A DNA stretch of 64,000 bases, taken from assembly GCA_026705345.1 (NCBI GenBank), contig JAPPAV010000120.1, positions 13,748-77,747 on the forward strand, written 5' to 3'. This stretch comes from Gammaproteobacteria bacterium (GTDB lineage Bacteria; Pseudomonadota; Gammaproteobacteria; Pseudomonadales; Azotimanducaceae). A model generated the notes under the pieces. It ran no database searches and was not told where the DNA came from. It saw nothing but the letters and a program-made list of their open reading frames with translations. How positions within the stretch are numbered: position 1 is the stretch's first letter; the number at the start of each line of letters is the position of its first letter. Below are positions 8,294-47,153 of the stretch, piece after piece. Made by a program: the position numbers and the translations under genes.

Positions 8294-8678
8294 CTCGGGA
8301 GCTTCCTTCTTGTCGTGGTTGCTGCCGCGCCAGAAGGTCTTCGAGGTAGCGGTATTCCTCGGGACTCAGTCGCTCGTCGCGCAGCAGGAAATTCCACATC
8401 GGTCTACGGTCGCCGGCGAAGACGTGGGTCACGAAGCGTTCGAGCATGGATTGCTGGATCTCGTCGGGCGGGATGACCGCTTTGTAGAAAATGGTCCGGC
8501 CCTCCTGGCGACTGCGGACAAGGACGCCCTTGCGCTCCAGTCGGTCCATGATGGTCTTGACCGTGGAGTAGGTCACCCCGCGCGCTTCGGCGACCGCCCG
8601 GTGCACCTCGGGCGCCGAGCGTTCCTCGGCGCGCCATACCTGCTGCATTACATCCAGTTCGAACTCCGAGAGTTTCAT
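8286..8678 (-). CDS. BlaI/MecI/CopY family transcriptional repressor
   Basis: 130 aa. It has a winged-helix N-terminus (LSEFELDVMQQVW...YSTVKTIMDRLERKGVL) and is paired with a downstream M56 sensor. Confidence 0.85.
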   Translation of the reverse strand: MKLSEFELDVMQQVWRAEERSAPEVHRAVAEARGVTYSTVKTIMDRLERKGVLVRSRQEGRTIFYKAVIPPDEIQQSMLERFVTHVFAGDRRPMWNFLLRDERLSPEEYRYLEDLLARQQPRQEGSSRDD

Positions 8679-8683
8679 CCAGA

Positions 8684-8721
8684 ATCTCTACAAACGTCTA
8701 TATAGACAATTGTAGAGATTA
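8684..8721. promoter_or_regulatory. Candidate BlaI-family operator: 38-bp nested palindrome just upstream of the blaI-like start
   Basis: The sequence is AATCTCTACAA-AC-GTCTATATAGAC-AA-TTGTAGAGATT, with 11-bp outer arms and a perfect 12-bp inner palindrome. It contains the TACA/TGTA half-sites typical of BlaI/CopY boxes and is AT-rich in a GC-rich genome. Confidence 0.5.
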
Positions 8722-8732
8722 TGGGTGCCCTG

Positions 8733-11526: not shown

Positions 11527-11758
11527 GGCGGCGGTCTCTGCATAACAACAAGACGGCAGCGTAAGCGACCGGTGCCGGGAGTGCCATGGACAATCGGTTG
11601 TCCGATCCGATAACCGATTCCGCCGGGTGCGGACGATTTCAGCGATGTCGCACACGAATCCGGGCCGATGTCTGTAACGCCTGCGATCCAGGACGGGCCA
11701 TGCTTGACTTGCTTGCCCACCCATCGCGCCGCACCAGGAACACCTGTGGTACTTTCAG

Positions 11759-12544
11759 ATGATGACAACCGAACCGCCTCCCCCCGCAACGCGCACCGGC
11801 GCTGGCGCAGTATCCGTGCCGCCGTCCGTTGCGCCGCGGCCCTCGCTGGCCGGGCGCCACGCAAGGGCGCTTTACCGACCGGTGCCGCCGGTCGGATATG
11901 ACGACGAAGGCCACCCCGAGAGCGACTCTGCAACCGTGGAAAGCGTCACCCACGATGACATTCGGGCGTACGCGATCCGCGCGCTGCGGGTCCGGTACGC
12001 GGCCGACCCGGGCTTCTTCGCCGGAGGGGACCTCGGGCTCTTGTTCGAGCGCGGCAATCCGGCCGCCGTCATGGCGCCGGACCTCCTGGTGTCGTTCGGC
12101 GCAGGCGGTGGGGCGCGCTCGTCCTACAAGCTGTGGGAGGCACCGGTGCCTGACCTGGTGATGGAACTGCTCTCGCCGAAGACGTGGCGGCGCGATGTCG
12201 AGGCGAAACCTGCCCTCTACGAGGAGCTCGGCGTACGCGAGTTCTGGCTGTTCGATCCGTTCGGCAAGCTGCCGCGTCCGGTCAACGGCTGGCTCTTGGA
12301 CGCCGACGGCGCGTACGCGCCCGTACCGGCCCTGCCCGACGGCGGCTGCCGGAGCGCAGTGCTGGATCTCGACCTGGTGGCGCACGGCGACGGTTTCCGG
12401 TTCCGCGATCCGGTGACCGGCGAGCTCTTACCGGACCATGCGGAGACCGCCACGGCGCTCCGCGTGTCAGAGACCGCGCGGCGGACCGCGGAGACGCGCG
12501 TGGCTGAGCTGGAGGCGTTGCTGCGGCGATCCGACCACCTTTGA
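11759..12544 (+). CDS. Uma2 (DUF820) family putative endonuclease
   Basis: 261 aa. It has a PD-(D/E)xK-like core (APDLLV...PDLVMELLSPKT...YEELGVREFWLFDP) characteristic of Uma2 proteins. The start is uncertain. Confidence 0.65.
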   Translation: MMTTEPPPPATRTGAGAVSVPPSVAPRPSLAGRHARALYRPVPPVGYDDEGHPESDSATVESVTHDDIRAYAIRALRVRYAADPGFFAGGDLGLLFERGNPAAVMAPDLLVSFGAGGGARSSYKLWEAPVPDLVMELLSPKTWRRDVEAKPALYEELGVREFWLFDPFGKLPRPVNGWLLDADGAYAPVPALPDGGCRSAVLDLDLVAHGDGFRFRDPVTGELLPDHAETATALRVSETARRTAETRVAELEALLRRSDHL

Positions 12545-12612
12545 ATTGCTTTTGCCGACGCCGCCCGATGTGTGTTCAACCGCAGCCCGCTGTAGTAAAG
12601 TCGCGCGCCCAC

Positions 12613-12699
12613 GCCGAGGTGGTGAAATTGGTAGACACGCTAGCTTCAGGTGCTAGTGGGGGTAACCCCGTGGAGGTTCAAGTCCTCTCCTCGGCACCA
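12613..12699 (+). tRNA. tRNA-Leu (anticodon CAG), class II with long variable arm, CCA encoded
   Basis: The sequence is GCCGAGGTGGTGAAATTGGTAGACACGCTAGCTTCAGGTGCTAGTGGGGGTAACCCCGTGGAGGTTCAAGTCCTCTCCTCGGCACCA. The acceptor is GCCGAGG/CCTCGGC, the anticodon stem is CTAGC/GCTAG with loop TTCAGGT, and the T-arm is GGAGG-TTCAAGT-CCTCT. Confidence 0.9.
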
Positions 12700-33541: not shown

Positions 33542-33914
33542 TCGTCTTGCGATGTTGGACTCCACACCTGAGCGGGCAGCCTGGTTAGCCAGTCACCCGT
33601 TGGCGTACCAACAAATCCGCCGCGTATGTACCGTCTTCCCTCGCTTTCGCCCGGACGACGGACTCGCCGTCTACCGCCGAGCCTTTCCGTTGTGACCGCG
33701 CCACCGCCTGCTGCATCGCACGACTGAGAGCGCGCGTCGGCCGAGGCGGACCAGCCGACCACGTCGGCGTGGTTGCCACGAGGCGTCGAGTTCGTTCCGT
33801 ATGCGGTGCCGCTGTGCTGGGTCCATTCTGCCCCATCGTGCCTCCATCCCGCCGTCATTGGCGCGTTTGGGTGGACCTTTTATGGTACATTGCGGGTAAT
33901 GATCGAAGCCAAGC

Positions 33915-34247
33915 GTGTCCGCGGTGTTCTATCGCACCGAGGACGGTGCAGAACCAGTGCGTGCATGGCTGAAGTCCATGGCGAAGAAGGATCGCTTCAA
34001 GATCGGCGTAGACGTCAAGACCGTCGAGTTCGGTTGGCCGGTGGGTATGCCGCACTGTCGACCCTTGGGCAACGGGCTGCACGAAGTGCGCACCAATTTG
34101 GAGAACAGGACAGCCCGCGTTCTGTTCTTCATCGCTGACGCCCACATGGTGCTGGTCCATGGCTTCGACAAGAAAACACGCGCAACGCCGAGAGCGGACA
34201 TGGCCCTGGCATTGGACAGGAAACGCGAGTGGGAGACATCCACATGA
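33915..34247 (+). CDS. Type II toxin, RelE/ParE superfamily (HigB/Gp49-like)
   Basis: 110 aa. FYRTEDGAEPVRAWL...CRPLGNGLHEVRTNLENRTARVLFFI...MVLVHGFDKKTRATP is the phage Gp49/HigB-type pattern. The toxin-first order and ATGA overlap with an HTH gene support this. Confidence 0.75.
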   Translation: MSAVFYRTEDGAEPVRAWLKSMAKKDRFKIGVDVKTVEFGWPVGMPHCRPLGNGLHEVRTNLENRTARVLFFIADAHMVLVHGFDKKTRATPRADMALALDRKREWETST

Positions 34248-34549
34248 CCAACGGACGAAACCCCCACCTTGGCGGCACGCTCGACGAGTTGCTGGAGGAA
34301 GACGGAGCATTGGCCGATGCCCATGCGATCGCCGTCAAGCGTGTCTTGGCATGGCAGGTCGGCCAGACGATGACGGATCTGCGCATCACCAAGAGCGAGA
34401 TGGCCCGACGCATGGGGACCAGTCGCTCTGCGCTGGCCCGCCTGCTCGACCCGGAGAACCCGTCGGTGACCCTGCTGACGTTGGACAGGGCCGCGACCGT
34501 GCTCGGCAAGCGACTCACCGTCGACTTTGCCGATCGCAAGACCGCCTGA
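34244..34549 (+). CDS. XRE-family HTH antitoxin (HigA-like)
   Basis: It has the helix-turn-helix ITKSEMARRMGTSRSALARLLDPEN. Its start overlaps the toxin stop. Confidence 0.75.
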   Translation: MTNGRNPHLGGTLDELLEEDGALADAHAIAVKRVLAWQVGQTMTDLRITKSEMARRMGTSRSALARLLDPENPSVTLLTLDRAATVLGKRLTVDFADRKTA

Positions 34550-34555
34550 GCGGGT

Positions 34556-35251
34556 ATGCGTAGACCAAGCGGACGTTTTGCGCCCGGAGTAAGACCCGTG
34601 GGCTACGACCCGGCATTCCCGCGGACACACTACGATGGTGTGGCCGACAAGGAGTGGAACCGGCTGACACGCAACCGGCGGGGTGAGCTCAACTTTCTCG
34701 TGCACATGGACGTGTTGCGGCAGCACATCACGGCCGACATGGATGTGCTGGAGATCGGGGCCGGGGCCGGCATCTACACCAAAGAACTGGTGCACATGGC
34801 GCGGCGGCTCGTTGTATCGGACCTCTCCGAGGTGCAACTCGCCCTAAACCAAGACCATATGCGCGATCTCGGCGTTCTCGACCAGGTGGATGAATACCGG
34901 GTCTTGGATCTTGCGGACTTGAGTGCACTCGACGCGGCATCGTTCGGCGCTGTGGTCTGCGTGGGCGGTCCCTTGAGCTACCTGCTCGACAAGGAGTCCG
35001 CCGGTGTACGCCAAATCCTGCGGGTCTTGAAATCTGGCGGCATCGCGGTGGTCGGCGTCATGTCGCTGATCAATACCCTGGTGCTTTTCATGGGCATGCT
35101 ACCCGCGGAGAAGGAGGCCAATGGAATCGACAACCTGCGCTGGATGCTCGAAACCGGATTCCAGGACCGCGAACACAGCCATCAGACCGAACACTACTGC
35201 CACATGATGACGAGTGGCCGTTGCCACGGCCGCACCCTCCGTTCGTCGTGA
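34556..35251 (+). CDS. Class I SAM-dependent methyltransferase, 3' end apparently truncated or replaced
   Basis: It has motif I (VLEIGAGAGIYT), then LVVSDLS and VVCVGGPLSYL. The reading frame runs into an out-of-frame PhyH-like gene fragment at about 35190-35250. Confidence 0.6.
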   Translation: MRRPSGRFAPGVRPVGYDPAFPRTHYDGVADKEWNRLTRNRRGELNFLVHMDVLRQHITADMDVLEIGAGAGIYTKELVHMARRLVVSDLSEVQLALNQDHMRDLGVLDQVDEYRVLDLADLSALDAASFGAVVCVGGPLSYLLDKESAGVRQILRVLKSGGIAVVGVMSLINTLVLFMGMLPAEKEANGIDNLRWMLETGFQDREHSHQTEHYCHMMTSGRCHGRTLRSS

Positions 35252-35313
35252 ACGTCGTGATCGCCGTCGACGACTTCACCCAGGAGAACGGTGCCACGGT
35301 GTTGGTTCCCGGT
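35194..35313 (+). pseudogene. PhyH-family dioxygenase fragment (upstream piece, 5'-truncated and cut by the Mu-type insertion)
   Basis: The frame of track ORF 35221..35421 reads LLPHDDEWPLPRPHPPFVVNVVIAVDDFTQENGATVLVPG. This is the HxD...DDFTxENGAT...PG(SH) core of PhyH proteins, and it stops making sense at 35314. Confidence 0.7.
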
Positions 35314-35365
35314 ACGATGCCGACAAATATTTTGCAGCACGACAGACAACTACGTTGCAGCAAAT
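35314..35365 (+). repeat. Left terminal inverted repeat with two putative transposase-binding sites
   Basis: TTGCAGCA occurs at 35332-35339 and 35355-35362. The first site lies 18 nt from the terminus. Confidence 0.75.
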
Positions 35366-35429
35366 CAGGTGAGTCTTGGAGCGCAGTAACGGGCCATCTT
35401 GGCCCACAGAACGGGGTATAGTCTGCGCC

Positions 35430-35936
35430 ATGCCCGCACGGTCGAAAATCGGTCGGCTCCCGCAAAACGTCAGGGCGCGCCTCGATGCCCGGCTCATGGC
35501 GACCGGCTTCGGGCAACACCAGCAACACGCCGAATGGCTCGCCGAGCAGGGACACCCCGACATATCGCGCGCCGCCGTTCAGCGGCACTCGGCAGCGCTC
35601 GCGCGACGTGTCGAAAACATCGACGCGGCGACCCGCAAGGCGACGGCGTTCATCGACGCCACGAACGACGACCACGGCGCGCTGGCGGAGGCATCGCTGC
35701 GCCTCATCCAGGACAAGATACTCGAACTGATGATGGCGGGCGAAACGCTCAGCCCGCGCGACGCGTCGCTGGCCGCCAATGCCCTGGCCAAAGCGGCGCG
35801 GGCGTCGACCGCCATCCAGCGCGAACGCCGCAAGACCCTGCGCGAAGCGGCGCAGCGGGCCGTCGCCGCAGGCCGGGAGCACGGCATACCGCGCGACTTC
35901 GAGGGCGTCATGCGCCGCGCCATCGAAGGCGGCTGA
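35430..35936 (+). CDS. DUF3486 / phage Mu gp27-like protein (putative small terminase-like DNA-binding protein)
   Basis: MPARSKIGRLPQNVRARLDARL...HAEWLAEQGHPDISRAAVQRHSAAL matches the conserved N-terminus of DUF3486 (Mu gp27) proteins as I recall it. The start was chosen at ATG 35430. Confidence 0.65.
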   Translation: MPARSKIGRLPQNVRARLDARLMATGFGQHQQHAEWLAEQGHPDISRAAVQRHSAALARRVENIDAATRKATAFIDATNDDHGALAEASLRLIQDKILELMMAGETLSPRDASLAANALAKAARASTAIQRERRKTLREAAQRAVAAGREHGIPRDFEGVMRRAIEGG

Positions 35937-36115
35937 ACCGGACCTGAACGCGGGCCGCCGAAGGCCCTTGACACCCCGCGCGCGCGGGCGCAAAGTCGGG
36001 GTTATGAGATCGTTCATTACTCCCTCCAATCTCTTGCACCGGCCCGCCGTTCGGGAACACGAACGGTCTCATAACCCGTTTCCGTTCGGTCGGGTCGGTG
36101 CAGGAGTCCTAGACA

Positions 36116-36511
36116 ATGGAAAAAAACAACCCCTTCGCCCAACCGCGCGAACCCAATCAGTCGGGCCTCGCGGCCCGCGCCCACGAGACGCTGCGCTGCA
36201 TCTTCCCCGAAGACTTCGCGCCGACGCCGGGCAACATCTTCAACGCGGCGGGACGGACGCGAGCCGTCGCGCAACTGCTGTTCAACGCGATCCGGGGCGA
36301 GAGCTTCGTGCCAGCCGAGCAGGAGGAAGACAACGAAATCCTGCAAGGTATCGCGGACGGTCTTCGCGTGCTGGCGGGCATCGCGGAGGTGCAGGCGTCG
36401 GTGCTGTGGGAAGTCACGCTGAGCGGGGTTGACAACGATAGCGCCCGCGCGCTGCTGGCCGACACGCTAGCGCCCAAGGAAGCCGACCAGGACAAGGAAG
36501 CCGACCGATGA
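36116..36511 (+). CDS. Hypothetical protein (acidic, element-borne)
   Basis: 131 aa with coding-like composition. Its stop overlaps the transposase ATG (ATGA). I recognise no family. Confidence 0.5.
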   Translation: MEKNNPFAQPREPNQSGLAARAHETLRCIFPEDFAPTPGNIFNAAGRTRAVAQLLFNAIRGESFVPAEQEEDNEILQGIADGLRVLAGIAEVQASVLWEVTLSGVDNDSARALLADTLAPKEADQDKEADR

Positions 36512-38319
36512 GCCAGCCAGCAACGCAACTGATCCCGACCGCGCTGCCGCGAACGCCCGCGCCACGTCCCGCCGCCGCCGAAACGCTGGAGTTCAAACGC
36601 CACGTCGTGCAGCGGGTGATCGCCCTCATGCACGACGGCGCGACGTTCCGCGCGGCGGTCGTGGCGGTCGCAGACACCGAGGTCTGGCCAACTGGCGCGA
36701 AGCGCGGGAGACTGGTCAGCGAACGCAGCATCGCGGGATGGTACTCGCAGATGAAGCGCCGAGGCGCGACCGGCGTGGTACGCCAGCCGCGCGGCGACAT
36801 CGGGCGGCGGCGCGTCGCCATATCCCGCAAGTGGGACAAGCTCGCCGAGCGGTGCGGTATCGACGCCGAGGGCCGCGAGCGGATCGCCGCCGAAATGGTC
36901 GAGGCGATACGCGGCGCGTACCAGTCCGGCGTCGCCAGCGCCTCGCAGGTGCAATACGACGTGCGCCCCGACCTGCGCGACAAGACGAAGGCGGCGGCGA
37001 CGGTCCCGCCGGACGACGCCGAACTGTTGAAGGCGAGCCGGATACCGGAAGACTTCATCCGCCGCTACCAGATCGACAAGCTGCACGCGATCCACCGCGC
37101 CGACAAGGGGCGCTGGTCGAACGAGATCGTTGCGCGCGTCAAGCGCAGCCGCGAGGGCCTGCGCCGCATGGAGTGGGTCGCGGGCGACGTTCACCCGCTC
37201 GACGTGGTGCTGCGCCGCGACGACGGCTCGACGTTCCACCCGTCGCTGATCGCCTGGGAGGACCTGGCGACCAACGACCTGTTTCTGTCGGTGGCGACTC
37301 CCGAGAAGGGCCGCAACGTGGGGCGCGCCGACATAATCGAGTCGTTCGCGGAAATGTCCGCCGACAGCCAATGGGGCGTGCCGACGAACCTCTACCTGGA
37401 CAACGGCAAGGAGTACAACGGCCTGGAACTGGCCGACGACATGATGGCGCTGTCGAAGCTGGCGAACTCCGAACTCAACCTGTGGGAGGACCGCGAGGCG
37501 TTCGACTCGCGCCGCCACGGCGTGCTGCGTTCGACGGCGTACCAGCCGCAGGGCAAGATCATCGAGGGGTTCTTCTCCAACTTCGAGAGGTACCTGTCGC
37601 GGCTGCCGGGCTACACCGGCGGCGACCGCATGAACAAGCGGACGGACGTGCTCGGCCACAAGCCGACGCCGTACACCGCCGGGGTGGCGAAGTTCAAGGA
37701 AGACGTGGAGAGCGCGCTAATGGAATACCGGCAGGTGAAGCAGCGCGGCCACCTGGACGGCAGGAGTCCCCACGAGGCGACACAGGAGCAGATCGACAAG
37801 GGCTGGCGGAGCGTGGTGCTCGATCCCTCGCACCTCAACATCGTGTTCGCCGACGTGCACCGGCGGCAGGTGCAGAGCGACGGCATCCACTACGGCAAGC
37901 GCATCTACTACAGCGACGCGCTCAAGCAGCGGACGCTGCCGGGCCAGTGGGTGCAGGTGCGCGTCCCGATCATGGGCGACGGCGAACTGCTGTACGTGAT
38001 GGACGGCGACGGCAACCCCGTCTGCACCGTCTCGGAGGCTCCCGTCTACGCGCAGGACGACCTGCGCGGGCCGAACGAGATCAAGCGCCGCAAGCGCGCG
38101 CAACTCGCGCACCTGGCGGCAACGCGGGTCGACTTCGACGCCGACGCGGGCGCGCGGATGCGCCGCGCGGCGAGCGTCGATCCGGTGCCGCAGGCGCAGG
38201 TCGGCGCGTATCTGTCGGTCGACCCCGGATGGGCGAAGCTCGCGGACGAGGGGCGGGAACTGCTGGAAGGGCCGCGCGCCCCGGCGCGCGCGCCGAAGAC
38301 GACGGAGGGCGGAGCATGA
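36508..38319 (+). CDS. DDE transposase, Mu (MuA)/retroviral integrase superfamily
   Basis: 603 aa. The candidate catalytic triad is D227 (EWVAGDVHPLD), D298 (LYLDNGKEY) and E353 (PQGKIIEGFF). The spacing of 71/55 is close to the MuA D-D-E spacing as I recall it. It also has an N-terminal HTH-like region. Confidence 0.8.
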   Translation: MSQPATQLIPTALPRTPAPRPAAAETLEFKRHVVQRVIALMHDGATFRAAVVAVADTEVWPTGAKRGRLVSERSIAGWYSQMKRRGATGVVRQPRGDIGRRRVAISRKWDKLAERCGIDAEGRERIAAEMVEAIRGAYQSGVASASQVQYDVRPDLRDKTKAAATVPPDDAELLKASRIPEDFIRRYQIDKLHAIHRADKGRWSNEIVARVKRSREGLRRMEWVAGDVHPLDVVLRRDDGSTFHPSLIAWEDLATNDLFLSVATPEKGRNVGRADIIESFAEMSADSQWGVPTNLYLDNGKEYNGLELADDMMALSKLANSELNLWEDREAFDSRRHGVLRSTAYQPQGKIIEGFFSNFERYLSRLPGYTGGDRMNKRTDVLGHKPTPYTAGVAKFKEDVESALMEYRQVKQRGHLDGRSPHEATQEQIDKGWRSVVLDPSHLNIVFADVHRRQVQSDGIHYGKRIYYSDALKQRTLPGQWVQVRVPIMGDGELLYVMDGDGNPVCTVSEAPVYAQDDLRGPNEIKRRKRAQLAHLAATRVDFDADAGARMRRAASVDPVPQAQVGAYLSVDPGWAKLADEGRELLEGPRAPARAPKTTEGGA

Positions 38320-38774
38320 ACCGTCCGCGTTACATCTTCGACGACTCCCCCGGCTGGCTCCAATTCCACAAGGACGCCCTGGTGGATCGGTATTGGCGGA
38401 TGCTGCACGGCAAGCGCCCGTATTGGTCCTCCATCGGACGGGTGACGGACGAAGACCGCGCCGCGTTCCACGAGTGGCTGCAACAGGCGGTAGGCGTGGA
38501 TCACGTCAATTTCCTCACCCTCGAAACGGTGATCACGGCGCGCGATCTGCTGCTACAAGCCGAGGACGCCGGGGTTTGCGACGAGGGGCCGAGCCACCCG
38601 CTGACCTTCGGCGAACTGGAACGCGCCGTAGGGCTGACGGTCGACGACTGGCAGCGGCTGGCGGAGCGCGTCGCCACCACCTGGCCCGGCGGGTTTCCCT
38701 GCCCGCCGGACGACGACGGAGAGTACAATACGGCGGTGCCGGACCTCTCGATATGGGAGCCTGACGAATGCTGA
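38316..38774 (+). CDS. Hypothetical protein (occupies the MuB position but has no ATPase motifs)
   Basis: 152 codons forming the 3' end of track ORF 36738..38774. Its ATG overlaps the transposase stop (ATGA). I see no Walker motifs. Confidence 0.5.
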   Translation: MNRPRYIFDDSPGWLQFHKDALVDRYWRMLHGKRPYWSSIGRVTDEDRAAFHEWLQQAVGVDHVNFLTLETVITARDLLLQAEDAGVCDEGPSHPLTFGELERAVGLTVDDWQRLAERVATTWPGGFPCPPDDDGEYNTAVPDLSIWEPDEC

Positions 38775-39238
38775 CGCTAACCGAACTGGTCGACGGCTAC
38801 ATGGAACGCAAGTACGAGCCGCTGCACCTGATTTTCTACGACGTGTTCGTGGAGGCGCAGCGCGTCCGCGCGGCCAACCCCGACGACACGAACGCGGCGC
38901 TGATCGAGGCGCACGTCGAACTGGCGAGCCTCGCGGCGACGCTGGTCGCGGGCGAGATCGAGAGCGGTTTGAAAGACGACGCGGGCACCATGCGCGAACA
39001 GGTCTTCAACGCAGCGCTGGTGGCGATGGCCGCCTGGCACTCGCTCCAGGGCGCGGACCTGGGCGAGCATCAGAACCGCCTCGCGCGGGTGGCGCTGGTC
39101 GAGACGATAAACGTCGTGATGCAGCACGTCGAAAGGCCGCAAATCGCGAAGCACCATCGGGAGATTTGGGGCGACGTGCCGCGCAGGCGGAGCCGCGCGC
39201 TGCTCGCCCGCATGGAGCGGCTGGCCGAAAATGCCTGA
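38768..39238 (+). CDS. Hypothetical protein
   Basis: 156 aa, predicted helical. It overlaps both neighbours by 7-8 nt, which suggests translational coupling. Confidence 0.5.
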   Translation: MLTLTELVDGYMERKYEPLHLIFYDVFVEAQRVRAANPDDTNAALIEAHVELASLAATLVAGEIESGLKDDAGTMREQVFNAALVAMAAWHSLQGADLGEHQNRLARVALVETINVVMQHVERPQIAKHHREIWGDVPRRRSRALLARMERLAENA

Positions 39239-39695
39239 CGCCGACGCATTCGACCCCGCCGCCGATCCGGCCTGGCGGGCCGTCATGGCGGCCAAGGCCG
39301 CCGTCGAAGACGCCAGCGGCGGCGGCGATTCCGTGTCGCGGCTGGCCGCCGCCGAGGTCAAGATGGCCGCGTTCGTGGTCCAGGGATTCATCACCGAAAC
39401 CCTGCGCGGCGCGACGGTCGAGGAAACGCTGACGGTGCGCAACGCGGCGATCCTCACGGCGCAGATGGCGGTGGCGCGGCTCGCGGGCGATCCGCGCGCC
39501 GATTCCGCCGACGCGCAGGCCGCGCGGGCCGAAACGCTCGAACAGGTGCTCAACGTCGGCGAGGCGTGCCTTGCGCGCGCGGCGGCGGCGGAGCGGCGCG
39601 CGGCGGTGATGCAGGAGACGGTCAGACTGCTCCGAGAGACGCTCGAGGCGATCCAGGCCGCCGACGCCAACGGGCGCGGCCCGGAGGTCCACTAA
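39231..39695 (+). CDS. Hypothetical protein (Ala-rich, helical)
   Basis: 154 aa in an operon position directly upstream of the capsid gene. I recognise no family. Confidence 0.45.
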   Translation: MPDADAFDPAADPAWRAVMAAKAAVEDASGGGDSVSRLAAAEVKMAAFVVQGFITETLRGATVEETLTVRNAAILTAQMAVARLAGDPRADSADAQAARAETLEQVLNVGEACLARAAAAERRAAVMQETVRLLRETLEAIQAADANGRGPEVH

Positions 39696-39734
39696 CCAAA
39701 GCTCATCCATCCACAGGGACGAAAGGAGTCCGAT

Positions 39735-40673
39735 ATGGAAGTCACCCACGGCAATCTGCAAACCCTCGAACGCACGTACTCGACGGCGTTCCGCGAGGGC
39801 TACGACCAGGCGCCCCGCGACCACGAGTCGTTCGCCATGACGATCCCGAGCGGGTCGCTGACTCAGGAGTACGCTTGGCTCGGCCAGTTCCCGTCGCTCA
39901 ACGAGTGGTCGGGCGAGCGCATCATCCGGGGGATCAACCAGCAGGGGTTCGCGATCCGCAACCGCCTGTTCGAGTCGACCGTCGGCGTCCAGCGCACGAC
40001 CATCGAGGACGACCAGTACGGCGTGTACGGCCCGCTCATGCGGGAGATGGGGCGCGCCGCGTCCGACCACCAGGCGCAGATGGTCTACGGCCTGTTGGCT
40101 CAAGGGTTCACGCGGAAGGGGTACGACGGGCAGTACTTCTTCGACACCGACCATCCCGTCAGCAGCAGCGCGGGCGGCACGACGAAGCTCTACTCGAACG
40201 ACGGCGGCGGCAACAACGCCGAGGCGTGGTTCCTGGTCGACGCCTCGCGGATGGTCAAGCCGATCATCTTCCAGGAGCGGCTGCGGCCCGAGTTCACGAT
40301 GCTCAACCAGGCCGACGACGAGCACGTCTTCATGCGCGACGAGTACCTGTACGGCATCCGCGAGCGGAGCAACGTCGGGTTCGGATTCTGGCAGACCGCC
40401 TACGGTTCGAAAGACGAGCTAAACGACACGAACTACAAGACCGCGCGCGAAGCCATGCGGGGCGTCAAGGGCGACGAGGGCCGCCCTCTCGGCATCACGC
40501 CGACGCACCTGATCGTGCCGCCGACGATGGAGGAGAAGGGCCGGGAACTGCTGGTTTCGGAGCGGTCGGCGGACGGCTCCACCAACGTCTGGTTCGACAC
40601 GGCGACGCTTGTCGTGACGCCCTGGCTCTCGGCGGGAACCACGCTCGACGAGGGCGGCGGACTGGAATCGTGA
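39735..40673 (+). CDS. Mu-like major head subunit (gpT family)
   Basis: 312 aa. YAWLGQFPSLNEWSGERI...FESTVGVQRTTIEDDQYGVYGPLMREMGRAA...GYDGQYFFDTDHPV...NVGFGFWQ follows the conserved gpT pattern. Confidence 0.8.
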   Translation: MEVTHGNLQTLERTYSTAFREGYDQAPRDHESFAMTIPSGSLTQEYAWLGQFPSLNEWSGERIIRGINQQGFAIRNRLFESTVGVQRTTIEDDQYGVYGPLMREMGRAASDHQAQMVYGLLAQGFTRKGYDGQYFFDTDHPVSSSAGGTTKLYSNDGGGNNAEAWFLVDASRMVKPIIFQERLRPEFTMLNQADDEHVFMRDEYLYGIRERSNVGFGFWQTAYGSKDELNDTNYKTAREAMRGVKGDEGRPLGITPTHLIVPPTMEEKGRELLVSERSADGSTNVWFDTATLVVTPWLSAGTTLDEGGGLES

Positions 40674-41686
40674 CGCAGGCCGCAATCGCGCTCGGGCGCG
40701 CGTCGGAGCTACCGGCGGAGCCGCCCGAGTGGGTGGACCTGCTGCCGTCCGGCGCGGTCCTGGCGCGCGACGGGCGGCGCTGGACGGTCGCGGATCCCGA
40801 GGCGGTCGCCGCCGCGAGCCGCGAGCGGGCGGGCGCGACGGATCCCGCCATCGACTACGAGCACCAGTCGCACCGCACGGCGGGGGAGGCTCCCGCCGCC
40901 GGATGGATCAAGGAGATACGCGCCGAGGGCGGCGCGATCCGGGCGCGCGTCGAGTGGACCGCGCACGCGGCGGCGCGCATCCGCGCGCGCGAGTACCGCT
41001 ACCTGTCGCCGACGTTCCTGTTCGACGCCGAGACGGGCCGCGTCCGGGCCGTGACCGGCGCGGCGCTCACCAACACCCCTGCCCTGGACCTGCCCGCGCT
41101 GGCGCGGGCGCGAGACGGAGAACCCGAGATGAACGAGGCGCTAAAGGCCCTGCTGGCCGTGTTCGGCCTGGACGACAACGCGGCGGCGGATGCCGTCGAA
41201 AGCGCGGCGGCGGAGGCGCGCCCGGCGCTCGCCGCGTACCGCAAGCTCAAGGAGCGGGCCGACGCCGAAGGCACGACGGTCGACGAACTGGCGACCGCCG
41301 CCGCCCGGACCATTCCCGATCCGGCGCAGTACGTGCCGCGCGCGCAACTCGACACGGCGCTGGCGCGGGTGGTCGAACTGGAATCCACGACGACGGACGA
41401 GGCGCTCGCCGCCGCCGTCGGCGGCGCGATCCGCGACGGCAAGCTCCCGCCGTCGCAGCGGAAGTGGGCCACGGCCTACGCGCGGGAGAACCTCGACGGC
41501 TTCCGGGCGTTCGTCGCGGGCGCGCCGGTGCTGATCCGCCCCGGACGCGACGGGCGCGGCGCGCCGGGCGACGGCGGGAGGCCGTCGACGCACGGCCTGA
41601 CCGAAGCCGAACTGGCCGTCTGCCGCGCCGTGGGCGTGTCTCCCGAGAAGTATGCTGGCCTTCCGGGCCGTGGCGAAGCGGCCTAG
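40670..41686 (+). CDS. Mu-like prophage protein I (gpI head protease/scaffold family)
   Basis: Its GTG overlaps the gpT stop (GTGA). PEWVDLLPSGAVLARDGRRW...IDYEHQS...AAGWIKEIRAEGGAIRARVEWT...YRYLSPTF is the gpI signature. The Ala-rich coiled C-terminal half fits a scaffold. Confidence 0.75.
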   Translation: MTQAAIALGRASELPAEPPEWVDLLPSGAVLARDGRRWTVADPEAVAAASRERAGATDPAIDYEHQSHRTAGEAPAAGWIKEIRAEGGAIRARVEWTAHAAARIRAREYRYLSPTFLFDAETGRVRAVTGAALTNTPALDLPALARARDGEPEMNEALKALLAVFGLDDNAAADAVESAAAEARPALAAYRKLKERADAEGTTVDELATAAARTIPDPAQYVPRAQLDTALARVVELESTTTDEALAAAVGGAIRDGKLPPSQRKWATAYARENLDGFRAFVAGAPVLIRPGRDGRGAPGDGGRPSTHGLTEAELAVCRAVGVSPEKYAGLPGRGEAA

Positions 41687-41909
41687 CCGCCGCTACAGCG
41701 CCGCCGAGCGCGCGATGGTGCGGGCCGCGTTCGCGGAGGCCGCCCGGCTGCTCGGCGCGCCGCTGGACGACGACCAACTGGACGCGGCGGCGCGGATCGC
41801 GACCACCCCCGGAATCGACCGCGACACCGCCGCGCGCCGCCTGAACCGGGAGGCCCGCCCCCTGTTCGACGCCGTGAAGCGGATGCTCGCCAGGACGGGG
41901 GAGGCGTGA
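41652..41909 (+). CDS. Hypothetical small protein
   Basis: 85 aa from the ORF track. It overlaps the gpI 3' end by 35 nt, and an alternative start lies at 41715. Support is weak. Confidence 0.3.
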   Translation: MLAFRAVAKRPSRRYSAAERAMVRAAFAEAARLLGAPLDDDQLDAAARIATTPGIDRDTAARRLNREARPLFDAVKRMLARTGEA

Positions 41910-41910
41910 C

Positions 41911-44265
41911 GTGCCGCTAGGCCGGGGCGACCTCGAACTGGCGCTGCGGGTGCGCGCCGACCTGCGCCAGGCCGTCGGGGAACTGAACCGCCTGACGGCG
42001 GCGGTCGGCAAAACGGACGCGAACACGCGGCGCGGCGCGAAGGCGAACCGCGAACTGTCGCGCACCGTCCAGCGCGTGGCGCGCGACGCGCAACAGGCCG
42101 CCCGCTCGCTGGACCGCTTGGACCGCGAGCAGCGGCAGACCGCCGCCGGTGCCGAGCGCATGGAGCGCGCCGCGAGGGGCGCGGGATCGGCCTGGCGGCG
42201 GTTCCGCACCTTGGTCGCGGCGGGCGGCCTCGGCCTGCTGCTCCGCGAGGTGGTGCAGGCCGGGATCGAGTTCGAGGCGTTCGAGCAGAAGCTCCGCTTC
42301 GCGACGGGATCGGCGGCGGGCGCGACGGCGGAACTGGCGTTCCTGCGCGCCGAGGCCAACCGCCTCGGGATCGACTTCAACGTGCTCGCCGAGAGCTATT
42401 CGAACTTCGCCGCCGCGACGCGGGACACGCCGCTGGAACAACAGACGCGGGAGATATTCACGGCGTTCGCCGAGGGCGCGCGCGTGCTCCGCCTGACTCG
42501 CGAGCAGACGCGCGGCCTGTTCCTGGCGCTCGAGCAGATCGTGTCCAAGGGCGTGGTCAGCGCCGAGGAACTGCGCCAGCAGCTGGGCGAGCGGCTGCCG
42601 GGCGCGCTCCAGATCGCGGCGCGGGCGCTCGGCGTGACGACCGAGGAACTGAACCGGATGCTGGCCAGCGGCGAACTGCTGTCGACGGAGTTCCTGCCGC
42701 TGTTCGCGGCGGAGGCCCGGCGCACGTTCGGCGCGGACGTTCCCGAGGCCGCGAACAAGGCCGACGCGTCCATCGCGCGTTTAGGCAACGCGTTCCGCGA
42801 CCTCAAGGTCAGGATCGCCGAATCGGGCGTGCTGGACTTGACTGCGGCCTTGGCGGAGGCGGCCGCGGCGGGCATCCACGCGGCCAACGAGGCCGATCGG
42901 ACGCTAGGCCAGCGGCTCCAGGAGCGCGTGAGGATGGACCGACTGCGCGAACTGCTGGCCGAGCAGGCGGACCTGCGCGACCAGATCAACGCCGCGCTGG
43001 ACCGCGACGAGGCGCTGTACGCGCAGTACCTGCGCCAGCGGCTGGAGGGACTCGCGGACGATGTGCGCGACGCGGCCCGCGCGGTCCGGGCGGTGTCGGG
43101 CGCGCCGCCGCCGCTCGGGGAGATTCCGCCGGTTCCCGTCGGCGGCAGACGCCCCCGGCCCGAGCCGCCGCATCCCGAGCCAGCGCCGGTCGACCCGGAG
43201 TTTCTCGCGCGGCTGGAGAAGGAGAACCGCGCGATCCTCGGCATCTACGACCGCCGCCGCGCGAGCGCCGCCGAAACGCGCGACACGCTGCTCGGCTACC
43301 TGTCGGAGCAGACGGAGGGCTACGCGGAACACGTCGCCGCCGTGCAGACGTGGTACGACACGGTGCTCAAGGGCATCGCGGAGGACGAGGCCGCAGACGC
43401 CGAACGGCGCGCCGAGGCGAAGGCGGCGGCGCGCCAGCGCGAGATCGAGGCCGACGAACGGGCCGCCGCGAGCGCGGAGGACGCCGCACGGCGCGCGAGG
43501 GAGGCGGCGGCGCGCGAGGCCGAGCTAGCGTACCGCTCGGCGCGGGACGCCCTAACGGGCGCGCACAGGGCGCTAGGCGACATCGCCGAGCTTGCGACGG
43601 ACGCCGGGGCGGAGGCCGAGAGCGCCATCGTGAACGCGTTCCACGGCATTGAGGACGCGTTCGAGCGGCTGCGGCGGACGGGCAAGGCGAGCTTCGGCGA
43701 CCTGGTCGACTCCGTGTTGGCGGACGTGACGCGGCTGCTGCTGCGGCTCCAGGTGACCGGCCCGTTGGCGCTGTTCCTGCAATCGCTGCTAGGCGGCGCG
43801 GGGCAGGTCGGGCTGCCGCTCGGCGACGGCTCCCGGTTCGCCGGGTTCGCCCACGGCGGCGGGATCGCTGGATCGCTCCGCACCGGGCGGCGGCTGGACG
43901 CCGCCGCGTTCGCCTTCGCGCCGCGACTGCACAGGGGAGGCTCAGCGTCCGTATTCCGGCCAGCAGTCGCTCGTGGGATTCCGGGCCTGCGCGACGACGA
44001 GATTCCGACCATCCTGGAGCGCGGCGAGGGCGTGTTCACGCGCGAGCAGATGGCGGCGCTCGGCGGCCTCGCGGGCGGGCCGCGCGAGGTGGTGGTTCAG
44101 ATACGCAACGAGAGCAGCCAAGAGATCGAGGCGAGCGACGCGACGGCGGAGTTCGACGGGATGCGGCGGATGGTCGTCGGCGTCGTGTTGAACGACCTGC
44201 AACACGGCGGGGACATATCCCGCGCCCTGCACGGTGGGTTCGGCCTGCGGCGGAGGCCGATTTGA
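41911..44265 (+). CDS. Phage tail tape measure protein
   Basis: 784 aa with a GTG start. The conserved tape-measure core is TREQTRGLFLALEQIVSKGVVSAEELRQQLGERLPGALQIAARALGVTTEELNRMLASGELLSTEFLPLFA. Long coiled-coil Ala/Arg/Glu-rich segments follow. Confidence 0.8.
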   Translation: MPLGRGDLELALRVRADLRQAVGELNRLTAAVGKTDANTRRGAKANRELSRTVQRVARDAQQAARSLDRLDREQRQTAAGAERMERAARGAGSAWRRFRTLVAAGGLGLLLREVVQAGIEFEAFEQKLRFATGSAAGATAELAFLRAEANRLGIDFNVLAESYSNFAAATRDTPLEQQTREIFTAFAEGARVLRLTREQTRGLFLALEQIVSKGVVSAEELRQQLGERLPGALQIAARALGVTTEELNRMLASGELLSTEFLPLFAAEARRTFGADVPEAANKADASIARLGNAFRDLKVRIAESGVLDLTAALAEAAAAGIHAANEADRTLGQRLQERVRMDRLRELLAEQADLRDQINAALDRDEALYAQYLRQRLEGLADDVRDAARAVRAVSGAPPPLGEIPPVPVGGRRPRPEPPHPEPAPVDPEFLARLEKENRAILGIYDRRRASAAETRDTLLGYLSEQTEGYAEHVAAVQTWYDTVLKGIAEDEAADAERRAEAKAAARQREIEADERAAASAEDAARRAREAAAREAELAYRSARDALTGAHRALGDIAELATDAGAEAESAIVNAFHGIEDAFERLRRTGKASFGDLVDSVLADVTRLLLRLQVTGPLALFLQSLLGGAGQVGLPLGDGSRFAGFAHGGGIAGSLRTGRRLDAAAFAFAPRLHRGGSASVFRPAVARGIPGLRDDEIPTILERGEGVFTREQMAALGGLAGGPREVVVQIRNESSQEIEASDATAEFDGMRRMVVGVVLNDLQHGGDISRALHGGFGLRRRPI

Positions 44266-44885
44266 CACCTCGTTTCGAGGACCTTCAGGCCGTGGCATGG
44301 AGCAACTTGCTGTCGGGCGTCCGCGACGCGATATATGCGCAGGTCGACTTCAGTCGGCTCGCGCCACACGCCACCGAACCGTACTCGACGGTCGCGCTAA
44401 CGGGGGAGGATTGGCTGTGGCTCCAGAGTCATTTGCGTCGGGCCGTAACGTTCCACGCGGACCTTTGGGGAATTCGGCTCAGAGACGAAGGGGGGTTGGA
44501 CCCGCTCGAACCGCTGCTGTTCATCCGCAGCGGCGCGGCGTCCCTACGCCCTTGGCGCAGTGACAACCCGCCGGACGCGGGCGACCCAATCGTCAGGTCG
44601 CGCGCATTGACGACGATTGCGGTTTTGCAGGACGACCCCGATTGCGTCTTGGAGGCGTTGACGCTTGGGGATGGAGACTCTCGCGGTGTCGACCTGCTGC
44701 GCAACCGGCGGTTCGCCCCGGGCGACGACGCCAACAACCCCACCGGGCCATGGTTTCGTTATTCCGGCGTTGATGGCGCGACGTTCCGGGCGGAGTACCA
44801 ACGAACAACTCCGTTGGCAGCGAGTGCGGGCAGGACCGTGGACAGCATTGTCTCCTATGCCCACCATTACTACCCGCGTCCCTAG
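44262..44885 (+). CDS. Hypothetical protein (last gene of the element)
   Basis: 207 aa. Its TTG start overlaps the tape-measure stop (TTGA). I recognise no family. Confidence 0.45.
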   Translation: MTPRFEDLQAVAWSNLLSGVRDAIYAQVDFSRLAPHATEPYSTVALTGEDWLWLQSHLRRAVTFHADLWGIRLRDEGGLDPLEPLLFIRSGAASLRPWRSDNPPDAGDPIVRSRALTTIAVLQDDPDCVLEALTLGDGDSRGVDLLRNRRFAPGDDANNPTGPWFRYSGVDGATFRAEYQRTTPLAASAGRTVDSIVSYAHHYYPRP

Positions 44886-44952
44886 GTCGTTTGTTCCTCT
44901 ACCACCTGCTCCCGCGAAATCCCGTTTGATCCCGGAAAATCCCGGCTTTCGC

Positions 44953-45003
44953 CGTTGCTGCAAACTAATTATCGGTTGCTGCAAAACAATTTTCCGCCTC
45001 GTA
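44953..45003 (-). repeat. Right terminal inverted repeat with two putative transposase-binding sites
   Basis: TGCTGCAA (the reverse complement of TTGCAGCA) occurs at 44956-44963 and 44977-44984. The last site lies 19 nt from the terminus, mirroring the left end. Confidence 0.75.
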
Positions 45004-45392
45004 CCGGTTCGCACAAGTGGCATGACCAGGAGGTGCGTCAGCCTCCCGATGTCGGGACCGTCCAGATGGAGATGGGTGTCGGCTCGCTGTTGGCTTGGAC
45101 CGGCGCCATGTGGCACGGCGGGGGCGCCAACAAGACCAAGGATCAGAGCCGGCTCGCCGTCGACATCAACTTCAACCTCTCGTACCTCCGCCAGCAGGAG
45201 AACCAGTACATCGGTGTCCCGCGGGAGGAAGTCGCGAAAATGCCCGAGCGACTACAGCGCGTGCTCGGCTATCAGCAGGGCATGTCGATCGCCGGACCCG
45301 GCATGGTGGATCTGCGCGACCCGCTGAAGATGATGGACCGGGTGCATTTCGGGTACGACGTCAACGGCCCCGACATGCCCGCTATCGGCTAG
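45004..45392 (+). pseudogene. PhyH-family dioxygenase fragment (downstream piece of the gene split by the element)
   Basis: GSHKWHDQEV...GSLLAWTGAMWHGGGANKTKDQSRLAVDINFNLSYLRQQEN is the PGSHKW plus distal-His (WHGGG) C-terminal half of PhyH proteins. It is in frame with the 35194-35313 piece once the insertion and one TSD copy are removed. Confidence 0.8.
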
Positions 45393-45432
45393 CAATCCTC
45401 GAGAGCCCGCCGGTCCAAAGAGGCCGATGCAA

Positions 45433-45753
45433 TCACGCCTTCTCGCCGTAGTGCACCGCCAGGCCGATCAGCAGGATCAATCCAACCAAAGCCAGGCAAC
45501 TGATGGCCCACACTTCGAGGTTGACAATCCCGGGGCCGGCCAGAAATGTGGCCGCCGACCAGTAAAGCGTTGCGATCGCCAGCCTCGGCGTGGCGCGAAT
45601 GCACGCCACGGCCACCACCGGGGTAACGAAGCACACCAGCACAGCGGGCGTGGCAATCGCCATGCTGGGTACGAACGCGAGCATCGAGAGGATCAAGGCT
45701 ATCGAACAAATCGTGACGGGGACGCGTCGTGGTGTGGTGTCGCTTGCCGTCAT
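45433..45753 (-). CDS. Small hypothetical membrane protein
   Basis: 106 aa with three strongly hydrophobic segments. I recognise no family. Confidence 0.45.
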   Translation of the reverse strand: MTASDTTPRRVPVTICSIALILSMLAFVPSMAIATPAVLVCFVTPVVAVACIRATPRLAIATLYWSAATFLAGPGIVNLEVWAISCLALVGLILLIGLAVHYGEKA

Positions 45754-45796
45754 GTCGCGCCCTAGCGGGTGACGTGGTCGGTTTTGACCATCCTAG

Positions 45797-45850
45797 TGGA
45801 GCCGGAGGGAATCGAACCCTCTCCCGCCCCGGGCCCAGCCGGGCAGCCCC
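45797..45850 (-). other. tRNA-like 3' fragment (variable-arm-like hairpin, T-arm, acceptor 3' strand), possible integration-site remnant
   Basis: The minus strand reads GGGGCTG-CCCGGCTGGGCCCGGG-GCGGGA-GAGGGTTCGATTCCCTC-CGGCTCC-A. It has a canonical T-arm (GTTCGATTC) and an acceptor 3' strand, but no D-arm or anticodon arm can be drawn and no CCA is encoded. Confidence 0.3.
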
Positions 45851-45881
45851 GCAGCCGACTGTAACGTTTGAAGAGCCCGAG

Positions 45882-47153
45882 TCAAGGACGTTGCCGCCGT
45901 GTCGGCTCTCGAATCACGCCGTCGGCAAACAAGCGGTTGATTGCCGGTTCGGACAGGCCGGCCTCGGTGAGAATCTCCCGCGTGTGCTTGCCAAGTGCCG
46001 GCGACGCCGACGTCGTCGACAACGGCGTTTCGCTGAACCTGACGGGGGGCGCGACGACGGTCATGCCGCCGACCTCTTCGTGTTCCAAGCGTGTCAGGTA
46101 GCCGTTCTCCCAAACGTGGGGATCCTCGAAGATCTCGTCCTTCAACCGGTATTCGCCGGCCGGCAGGCCCGCCGCGTCGAATTTCGCGAGCCAGCGGGCC
46201 GTAGTCTCCTCCGCCAATCGGGCGGCTGACCGGCGGCGCATCCGACGTGTGTGGGCGGCGATGTCGTCGATCTTGAAGTTTGGATCCGTCAACGCCGGGT
46301 CTTCGATGCCGAGCAGCTTGGCGACTCTCACTTGGAGTCCGCGGCCACCGGCGGCGATGACGATGTAGCCGTCCTTGGTCTCGAAGAAACCGTAGTAGGG
46401 CGGGTTGATCGACGGCTTCAGGGTCTCGCGTTCACCTAGCACGTCGGTCAGGGTTCGACCGTCTGCGAATGCCGTCTTCAAGTGCTCGACGAAGCCCTTG
46501 CGCCAACCGTCCACGGCGTCGACGTGGTGGATCGAGTTGTTCTGGATCACAAGGGCGGCCTGGAGAAGCGACACATCGAGCTTCTGTCCCACCCCCGTTC
46601 GCTCTCGGTTGTAGAGGGCGGTGGCGATGCCCCAGGCCATCAACAGTGCCGCCGTGTAGTCCACGAACGGATCGGCCGGCGGTCTCGGGCCCGATTCCGT
46701 CATCGGCGTCATGCCCGTGTATGCCTGCAGGAGAATGTCCATGCCTGGCTTGCCTGCCAATGGACCCTTTGGGCCGAATGCGGTGTTCTGGGCGTAGACG
46801 ATGCGCGGGTTGGCGCGGGAGACTGTCTCGTAGTCGAGGCCCAGTTTCTCGCCTTGTCCCGGTCGGAAGTTGACGATCGTGACATCGGCCTTGTGCAGCA
46901 AGCCCTGCACGATCCGTGTGATGCGAGGGTCCGAAAGCTGCAGCGCGATGCTGCGCTTGCCGCGGTTCTTGTTGAGGTATTGGCGCGCCTCGGTGGGCGA
47001 GAAGCGGGTGCCGTTGCGTCTCGCGTCGTCGCCAACCAGTGGTTCGACCTTGATCACGTCGGCACCACCATCGGCGAGCAGTTGGCCACAGTACGGGGCG
47101 GCGATGAAACGGCCGAGTTCGATGACCTTCAAGCCGGTGTATGGACCCTGCAC
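45882..47153 (-). CDS. Family III CoA-transferase (CaiB/BaiF/Frc family)
   Basis: The start was chosen at GTG 47153, which is preceded by AAAGGAG, and the long 5' extension of track ORF 45882..47603 was rejected. LKVIELGRFIAAPYCGQLLADGGADVIKVEP and NKNRGKRSIALQL are family III signatures. Confidence 0.85.
   Translation of the reverse strand: MQGPYTGLKVIELGRFIAAPYCGQLLADGGADVIKVEPLVGDDARRNGTRFSPTEARQYLNKNRGKRSIALQLSDPRITRIVQGLLHKADVTIVNFRPGQGEKLGLDYETVSRANPRIVYAQNTAFGPKGPLAGKPGMDILLQAYTGMTPMTESGPRPPADPFVDYTAALLMAWGIATALYNRERTGVGQKLDVSLLQAALVIQNNSIHHVDAVDGWRKGFVEHLKTAFADGRTLTDVLGERETLKPSINPPYYGFFETKDGYIVIAAGGRGLQVRVAKLLGIEDPALTDPNFKIDDIAAHTRRMRRRSAARLAEETTARWLAKFDAAGLPAGEYRLKDEIFEDPHVWENGYLTRLEHEEVGGMTVVAPPVRFSETPLSTTSASPALGKHTREILTEAGLSEPAINRLFADGVIREPTRRQRP

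Follow-up and report, generated by a model that had tools for sequence, protein, structure and literature searches.

What kind of mobile DNA splits a PhyH-type dioxygenase gene in a gammaproteobacterium of the family Azotimanducaceae, and how might it spread? The gene lies in a 64-kb stretch of contig JAPPAV010000120.1 (assembly GCA_026705345.1, positions 13,748 to 77,747), hereafter the window, and is interrupted by a 9,690-bp element (35313/35314-45003). The original prediction, made from the sequence alone, was of a precise insertion of a Mu-type transposable element. Here, we report that the insertion of a Mu-superfamily element is real and precise. The insertion itself is ordinary; the build of the element and the family to which it belongs are the interesting part. 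The element is most likely a satellite-like mini-Mu that depends on a helper phage, a joint reading to which we give slightly better than even confidence.

The insertion site

The element is flanked on both sides by CCGGT (Table 1). When it is removed together with one CCGGT copy, the rejoined protein matches the Pfam PhyH family (PF05721) as a single stretch over positions 121-211 of 213, junction included, and across the join of VLVPG to SHKW it aligns without gaps to homologs of 269-280 aa at 66-75% identity. The homolog P0129, encoded on contig L007 of a related "Gammaproteobacteria" metagenome-assembled genome (MAG), reads ENGATVLVPGSHKWHDQ across the junction and is likewise aligned gap-free. 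Contig L007 and a metagenomic contig, L008, are syntenic with the window, with 84-93% DNA identity, and are uninterrupted; the shared order in L007 runs from Fic through PhyH and a small reverse open reading frame (ORF) to a CoA-transferase gene. By blastn, L007 5394-5495 corresponds to window 35215-35316 and L007 5488-7561 to window 45004-47129. L007 and L008 read CTGGTTCCCGGTTCGCACAAATGG at the empty site, where a single CCGGT coincides with the junction; in the alignment this site appears as CTGGTTCCCGGTTCGCAC, again with one CCGGT. Profile continuity, gap-free homologs and a syntenic empty site together bear out the predicted precise split of a PhyH-like gene, and the single CCGGT at the junction refutes the other arrangement that had been considered, a GTAC overlap restoring VPGTGSHKW.

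The predicted reading frame through PGSHKW is indeed restored, but the gene is not otherwise intact. Comparison with L007 reveals a loss of 663 bp from the window (L007 4731-5393; window junction 35215/35216), covering the 3' part of the upstream methyltransferase region, a spacer and some 131 codons at the start of PhyH. This separate deletion explains why the N-terminal 120 profile positions are absent from the rejoined protein. The PhyH-type gene has thus been damaged twice, independently, by this deletion and by the insertion of the element. The edge of the deletion lies 98 bp away from the element, not at its tip.

Element ends and target duplication

A repeat search recovered inverted arms of 31 nt with 84% complementarity (35309-35339 and 44977-45007), and by MAFFT the similarity of the ends reaches about 65 nt. 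Gapped local alignment of the 70-nt tips covered 51 and 49 nt with 39 identical positions and a score of 26. As a control, 20,000 pairs were drawn at random from the window at a distance of 9.6 kb; they scored 8.8 on average (standard deviation 2.0), and none reached 26. One random 70-mer pair at this distance scored 25, and another inverted repeat may exist elsewhere in the window. Within the ends, the motif TTGCAGCA stands out: the 64 kb contain five copies where 1.08 would be expected, and four of the five are the paired end sites. All four sites extend to about 20 bp with the consensus CNGAnAAnTnnnTTGCAGCA, each ending in TTGCAGCA; they lie two to an end in inverted orientation, at spacings of 23 bp (left) and 21 bp (right), and are putative transposase-type sites. 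The inverted ends of about 50 nt and the two repeated sites per end, both features of the original prediction, therefore exceed chance expectation. A scan of metagenomic and viral contigs with the pattern TTTTGCAGCAN{13,15}TTGCAGCAA gave 120+ and 14 matches, respectively, all of them due to chance, with no DNA or proteins shared; the pattern was too loose.

Could the whole arrangement be an assembly chimera, or the likeness of the ends an accident? The source is a MAG, which invites the question, yet this explanation is hardly credible. The end similarity lies above all 20,000 random pairs, the flanks rejoin exactly on the syntenic empty site with one shared CCGGT, and an independent assembly (L001) is 100% identical over the left junction and 8.7 kb of the element. 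Identical sequence occurs in three other assemblies in all; L001, the only one to reach a junction, has the same left flank.

As to the target duplication, both predicted CCGGT copies are present, with a single copy at the empty site, while its length, given as 5 bp, may be 4 bp (CCGG) rather than 5 bp (CCGGT). If T35313 is counted as part of the element, both tips begin TACGA, with 19 nt between each tip and its first site, and the duplicated sequence is CCGG; a 5-bp duplication requires tips offset by one base. Of two relatives described below, L004 has tips beginning TG flanked by ACGC, 4 bp only, and L084 has tips beginning TGGA flanked by GTTT(T), with the same ambiguity between 4 and 5 bp. 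The CCGGT sequence fits the known Mu target preference, N-Y-(G/C)-R-N.

Transposase and Mu-type identity

The element encodes 11 ORFs, all on the forward strand, which fill 95% of its length. At seven of the ten junctions, neighbouring genes overlap by 4-35 nt, and GC content at third codon positions (GC3) is 0.75-0.95 across all 11 ORFs; the GC content of the element is 0.66-0.76 versus ~0.64 in the flanks. In the transposase, residues D227, D298 and E353 occupy invariant columns of the alignment of its relatives, with MuA-like spacing. Against solved structures, the transposase family profile matched TnsB at 1e-11 and MuA (4FCY) at 1e-8; phmmer with the transposase alone found nothing among PDB sequences. 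The protein is without the ~100-aa N-terminal helix-turn-helix (HTH) domain of its ~700-aa relatives. The 131-aa ORF whose stop overlaps the transposase start was considered as that domain in split-off form and rejected, no similarity to it having been found. The closest transposase relatives share at most 47% identity, and none above 26% was found among 50,697 deposited phage genomes. On these sequence features, we place the element in the Mu transposition superfamily, with its own MuA/TnsB-type DDE transposase.

A second possibility is a transposon of the Tn7/Tn5053 type, comprising TnsB or TniA, an AAA+ regulator and a target selector. The slightly better profile match to TnsB structures than to MuA would agree with this, and the multi-site ends and the duplication, if 5 bp long, are features that both groups share. 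Nevertheless, we regard it as very improbable. No Walker A (P-loop) motif occurs in any of the six frames of the element and no ORF matches an AAA family, nor did family searches find a TniQ/TnsD-like protein or a TnsC/TniB ATPase in it. The transposase carries the Pfam Mu-transpos_C domain, the genes that travel with it are Mu gp27, gpT and gpI homologs, and relatives have MuB, GemA, Mor and CI-type repressors. The DDE transposase, these homologs and the two sites per end agree with the Mu-type identity originally proposed.

Phage structural genes of mosaic origin

The gpT-type capsid gene precedes the gpI-type protease gene, the reverse of the canonical order in phages RC1, MP22 and RcapMu, and the gene for the tape-measure protein (TMP) follows two genes after gpI. 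The closest capsids are 55-58% identical to that of the element, and those of RC1 and MP22 46-47%. Capsid, protease and TMP are all closest to L373, a full-size Mu-like siphophage locus, at 55-60% identity in the best-matching segments; in the 859-aa TMP of L373, identity is 57% for the N-terminal segment and 44% for the C-terminal segment. The L373 transposase is unrelated to that of the element, and its order is the canonical one, I then T. In L373 (ENA ctg6192c, 1-20879), the protease and capsid genes come directly after the repressor region, and no terminase or portal gene precedes them. The gene order of Mu-like phages is more variable than in the reference phages.

By these comparisons the element is a mosaic, and its mosaic parts together with the T-then-I order argue that the layout is not the product of simple deletion from one phage. 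At 784 aa, its TMP is shorter than those of the full-size phages compared (859, 1,027, 1,231 and 1,232 aa; at least 828 aa in L372, where the gene runs off the locus). Megablast searches of phage and plasmid collections with the element as query gave no match.

Missing functions

With RC1, MP22 and RcapMu proteins as tblastn queries, no gene for TerL, portal, F, tail tube or lysis was found in the 64-kb window. Family searches gave no match to endolysin, TerL or portal in the element or the rest of the window, and none to an integrase in the element. Because it has no TerL, portal, tail tube or lysis genes, the element is unable to make virions alone, and its gene content identifies it as a compact, non-autonomous transposable-phage derivative.

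Early functions are reduced as well. Since no frame encodes a P-loop, the element has no MuB, which is present in the relatives L004, L084 and L371. No ORF of the element matches an HTH-repressor family (c, Ner); gp27 occupies the left end, and the ORFs without a family could hide a regulator.

Six ORFs (131, 152, 156, 154, 85 and 207 aa) have no match in Pfam, PHROGs, NCBIfam or PADLOC. The 85-aa ORF lies in the position of a tail-assembly chaperone and may encode one. The 207-aa ORF differs in composition from the other genes of the element (GC3 0.75 versus 0.82-0.95), with a local GC content of 0.645 like the host flanks, and may be a later acquisition; AlphaFold2 run without an alignment gave a predicted local distance difference test score of 36.6 and no usable fold. 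A DNA repeat hinted that the 156- and 154-aa ORFs might be paralogs, which BLASTP ruled out. An Rfam scan found nothing, a sigma-70 promoter scan found none, and terminator-like sites were no commoner than in shuffles.

Compact relatives in distant hosts

GTDB genomes, IMG/VR and look-ups supplied 132 loci with this transposase clade, which we classified. A gpT or gpI gene is found at most 7.5 kb downstream of the transposase gene in 32 of these, versus 14-18 kb in RC1, MP22 and RcapMu. About ten loci could be delimited as 8-10.5-kb units by their ends or by adjacent host genes. Matching ends bound L004 (Roseomonas; 8.18 kb, with host genes on both sides), L045 (Chelatococcus; ~8.4 kb), L050 (~8.1 kb), L051 (~9.3 kb), L073 (a Latescibacterota MAG; ~8.2 kb) and L084 (Methylocystis; 9.94 kb); in L020, L037 and L072, ordinary host genes directly after the last phage gene limit the unit to at most ~8.3-10.7 kb. 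The termini of L050, L051, L073 and the L023/L024 pair described below are not placeable to the base. L021 has a 22-nt terminal repeat and was excluded from the count, as it encloses an IS4-type transposase and the repeat could be that of a different element. A shared insertion site beside HI0933-type genes in L020 and L037 found no support, the two genes not being close homologs.

Gene content varies within this set. Some relatives encode a repressor, MuA, MuB and GemA/Mor, followed by I and T. The late genes retained may be gp27 only, I and T, or T, I and TMP; the window element has all four. The T-before-I order is common to the window element, L084, L034/L039 and several viral contigs, and a TMP of 658-752 aa is found in L084, L038 and L034/L039 and, weakly, in L020. 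In L023/L024, L060 (about 6 kb) and L057, gp27 is the only late gene. L023 and L024 (OZ242015.1; each 8390-12535 of its locus) are 100% identical 4,146-bp copies at different places in one chromosome, each comprising a gp27-like gene and a 694-aa MuA-type transposase gene. The flanks of L023 share GCTTGT(G), offset by one base. In L057, the repressor, MuA, MuB, GemA and gp27 genes are followed by a 959-aa MmeI-type restriction-modification gene (9776-12655), which may be defence cargo of the element. From these gene sets, we recognize a recurrent Mu-like group of 4-10.5 kb in Alpha-, Beta- and Gammaproteobacteria and other phyla. For a compact locus, the nearest transposase belongs to another compact locus in 23 of 25 classified cases, while compact loci make up a third of those classified.

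L034 and L039, two Microvirga elements, allowed selection to be estimated. The ratio of nonsynonymous to synonymous substitution rates is 0.08 for TMP, 0.08 for gpT and 0.15 for gpI, at synonymous divergences of 0.43-0.55; the structural genes of this pair are under purifying selection. In the same pair (at about 9.5-19.6 kb of their loci), TMP, gpT and gpI share 86-94% protein identity and the transposases only 57%, a difference that suggests that related elements have exchanged their early modules.

These relatives bear on a third explanation, namely that a full-size Mu-like phage inserted into PhyH, became grounded and lost its interior to deletions, leaving a functionless remainder. Every gene for autonomous virion production is absent, as such decay would have it; a single insertion is known, and the surrounding locus is itself decaying, since the window has lost 663 bp and the methyltransferase gene of L007 is broken. 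The L034/L039 elements, moreover, share their left flank across two species with no detectable right end, as in an old immobile copy. Random deletions, on the other hand, would not give 11 intact ORFs with strong coding GC3, 95% coding density and seven of ten junctions overlapping, and deletion alone cannot derive from the canonical order a T-then-I arrangement in which TMP is the second gene after I. The duplication is perfect, as are both ends; reduced gene sets recur with intact ends in distant hosts, their transposases cluster, and the structural genes of the compact pair L034/L039 are under strong purifying selection. We therefore judge decay unlikely, if worth serious weighing.

A model of helper-dependent spread

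From the insertion, gene content and family described above, we infer that the element depends on a helper: it does not encode the machinery to build virions, and its most probable route of spread is as the satellite of a full-size Mu-like phage. In this model, the transposase would pair both ends and move the element by Mu-type strand transfer, and the helper would supply terminase, portal, tails and lysis for spread between cells. In Mu, the pac site lies at the left end; gp27, encoded beside the left end of the element, could recruit the helper's large terminase and direct packaging from there. The element's own capsid and protease/scaffold might then build heads for ~10 kb instead of 30-40 kb, and its shorter, 784-aa tape measure would set a shorter tail. 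Control may be exerted by the helper or by read-through from the host gene, with which the element is co-oriented; this is suggested by the lack of both a repressor and the transposase N-terminal domain, by analogy with the enhancer- and operator-binding domain of MuA.

The same genes could instead be carried by an autonomous Mu-family transposon that is never packaged, as cargo with a role outside the virion: a decoy capsid, protease or tape measure directed against incoming Mu-like phages, or some other benefit to the host. A transposase and ends suffice for movement within a cell, as the two identical 4.1-kb copies of gp27 and MuA in one chromosome would fit; the restriction-modification gene of L057 points to defence cargo in one relative, and purifying selection fits any function, not virion formation alone. 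We consider this explanation quite unlikely all the same. None of 5,027 defence models matched an ORF of the element, and its capsid and protease match their families over the full length. The retained set, a candidate packaging-specificity gene (gp27) plus size-determining virion parts, is easier to explain by particle formation, and an unpackaged transposon would have no evident route between the distant hosts of the relatives.

Several observations weigh against the helper-dependent model. No helper phage was found, and the 64-kb window holds no other Mu-like gene. The exact element is known from one insertion only. Its tips are TA, not 5'-TG...CA-3', while L004 and L084 start TG; it is without the repressor, MuB, GemA and Mor of most relatives, and its six family-less ORFs have no detectable homologs in other compact loci. 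The role of gp27 as a putative small terminase comes from annotation. Among the relatives, the right end of L034/L039 was looked for and not found, and proximity of T or I to MuA over-counts compact elements when used by itself, because Mu-like gene order varies (in L373, I and T come directly after the repressor region); about ten loci have defined boundaries. We know of no satellite with a tape-measure gene, so that this part of the mechanism would be without precedent.

More broadly, the element and its relatives could be the first recognized transposable phage satellites, a widespread Mu-type family of 4-10.5 kb that would multiply by transposition, hijack full-size Mu-like phages in order to spread, and build small particles. 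This wider proposal we put forward tentatively, with less than even confidence, and the same caution applies to its corollary that the genes retained would be those for packaging specificity (gp27), for setting size (capsid, scaffold/protease and tape measure), or both. Our literature search found no Mu-type satellite or natural capsid-carrying mini-Mu; subscription journals were mostly outside its coverage, and a prior description is possible. The helper-satellite study PMC4936722 concerns a P4-like integrase element.

If correct, the proposal would describe a new way of being a satellite, a lineage built on Mu-type transposition; known phage satellites integrate by site-specific recombinases. 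It would also account for many of the small "Mu-like prophage remnants" in proteobacterial genomes. The retained gene set is unusual in comprising the parts that determine how large the head and how long the tail become (capsid, scaffold/protease and tape measure), and the proposal predicts small heads and short tails with ~10 kb of DNA. Several carriers are cultured strains in which the idea is directly testable; carriers include Roseomonas genomospecies 6 ATCC 49961, Pusillimonas noertemannii DSM 10065, Brucella endophytica CGMCC 1.15082, Chelatococcus caeni DSM 103737, Rhodopseudomonas palustris JSC-3b and the Microvirga strains. Even on more modest readings, this is a coherent, selected family of compact Mu-type elements whose transposase clade is absent from deposited phage genomes.

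Features and surroundings of the element

The coordinates of the element and the split gene are collected in Table 1. Beside the insertion site, between the conserved Fic gene and the methyltransferase, lies a variable spot (window 33553-34578 versus L007 1339-4250), where the window has a Gp49/HigB-like toxin and HTH antitoxin pair (33915-34549) and L007 a 779-aa Clp_N protein. The sole tRNA gene of the window, tRNA-Leu(CAG) at 12613-12699, has no relation to the element.

Table 1. Features of the element and the interrupted gene, in window coordinates.
Feature	Position	Strand	Details
PhyH-type dioxygenase gene, left fragment	35216..35313	+	Ends DDFTQENGATVLVPG; 5'-truncated by the 663-bp deletion relative to L007
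Target-site duplication, left copy	35309..35313	.	CCGGT, or CCGG (35309-35312) if T35313 is the element's first base
Left end, tip TACGATG	35313..35362	+	Putative sites L1 35320-35339, L2 35343-35362
Mu gp27 homolog (DUF3486; PHROG 'terminase small subunit'), adjoins left end	35430..35936	+	PF11985 1e-27; phrog_426 3e-24
131-aa ORF, no family match; stop overlaps transposase start	36116..36511	+	
MuA/TnsB-superfamily DDE transposase, 603 aa	36508..38319	+	Mu-transpos_C PF09299 7e-07; phrog_310 3e-36
152-aa ORF at the MuB position of relatives; no P-loop, no family match	38316..38774	+	
156-aa ORF, no family match	38768..39238	+	GC3 0.89
154-aa ORF, no family match	39231..39695	+	GC3 0.90
Mu gpT-type major capsid protein, 312 aa	39735..40673	+	PF10124 3e-116, profile 1-289/289
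Mu gpI-type head protease/scaffold, 338 aa	40670..41686	+	Full-length match; PF10123 8e-70; phrog_328 4e-78
85-aa ORF directly 5' of tape-measure gene	41652..41909	+	
Tail tape-measure protein (TMP), 784 aa	41911..44265	+	TMP_3 and Tape_meas_lam_C; TIGR02675
207-aa ORF, last gene, no family match	44262..44885	+	GC3 0.75
Right end, tip (reverse complement) TACGAGG	44956..45003	-	Putative sites R1 44977-44996, R2 44956-44975
Target-site duplication, right copy	45004..45008	.	CCGGT
PhyH-type gene, right fragment	45004..45392	+	Resumes at SHKWHDQ, to stop; partly annotated by NCBI as a 138-aa PhyH-family protein (P0115)

Comparison with known systems

With the Mu-like phages (Mu, the D3112/MP22 group Casadabanvirus, RcapMu and Rhodobacter phage RC1), the element shares a MuA-superfamily DDE transposase with a Mu-type C-terminal domain, several inverted, putative transposase sites at the ends, a short target duplication and homologs of gp27, gpT and gpI. 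It differs in size (9.7 kb versus 36-40 kb) and in the absence of MuB, repressor/Ner, GemA/Mor, lysis, TerL, portal, F, tail-tube and tail-tip genes; its capsid gene comes before the protease gene, its transposase has no N-terminal HTH, and its tips are TA rather than TG.

Laboratory mini-Mu, which comprises the Mu ends and A with or without B, is packaged by helper Mu, so that the proposed lifestyle is mechanically possible. Like it, the element is short, has ends and a transposase of the Mu type and would need the virion genes of a helper. Unlike mini-Mu, it is natural and itself encodes gp27, a capsid, a protease/scaffold and a tape measure; mini-Mu is packaged by the headful into full-size heads with much host DNA.

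Known phage satellites (P4, SaPI/PICI, capsid-forming PICIs, PLE and PICMI) redirect packaging with a small terminase of their own and capsid size with a capsid or scaffold of their own. In gene content, the element matches them, with an incomplete virion gene set and genes of the kinds that redirect packaging and capsid size; it is likewise small, and one relative (L057) may carry defence cargo as they do. It differs in using a Mu-type transposase and inverted ends, not an integrase and att site, in having a tape-measure gene and no primase or replication-initiator gene, and in that no helper is identified.

Tn7-like, Tn5053/Tn402 and CRISPR-associated TnsB elements share the TnsB-related DDE core and multi-site ends; in contrast to them, the element has neither a TnsC/TniB ATPase nor a TniQ/TnsD selector, and its cargo consists of phage structural genes. 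Defective Mu-like prophages, such as those of Haemophilus, Neisseria and Deinococcus, likewise have Mu-like genes without a full virion set. They have been described as partial copies of ordinary Mu-like genomes, whereas the layout of the element is compact, intact and re-ordered, is found again in units with matching ends and is subject to purifying selection.

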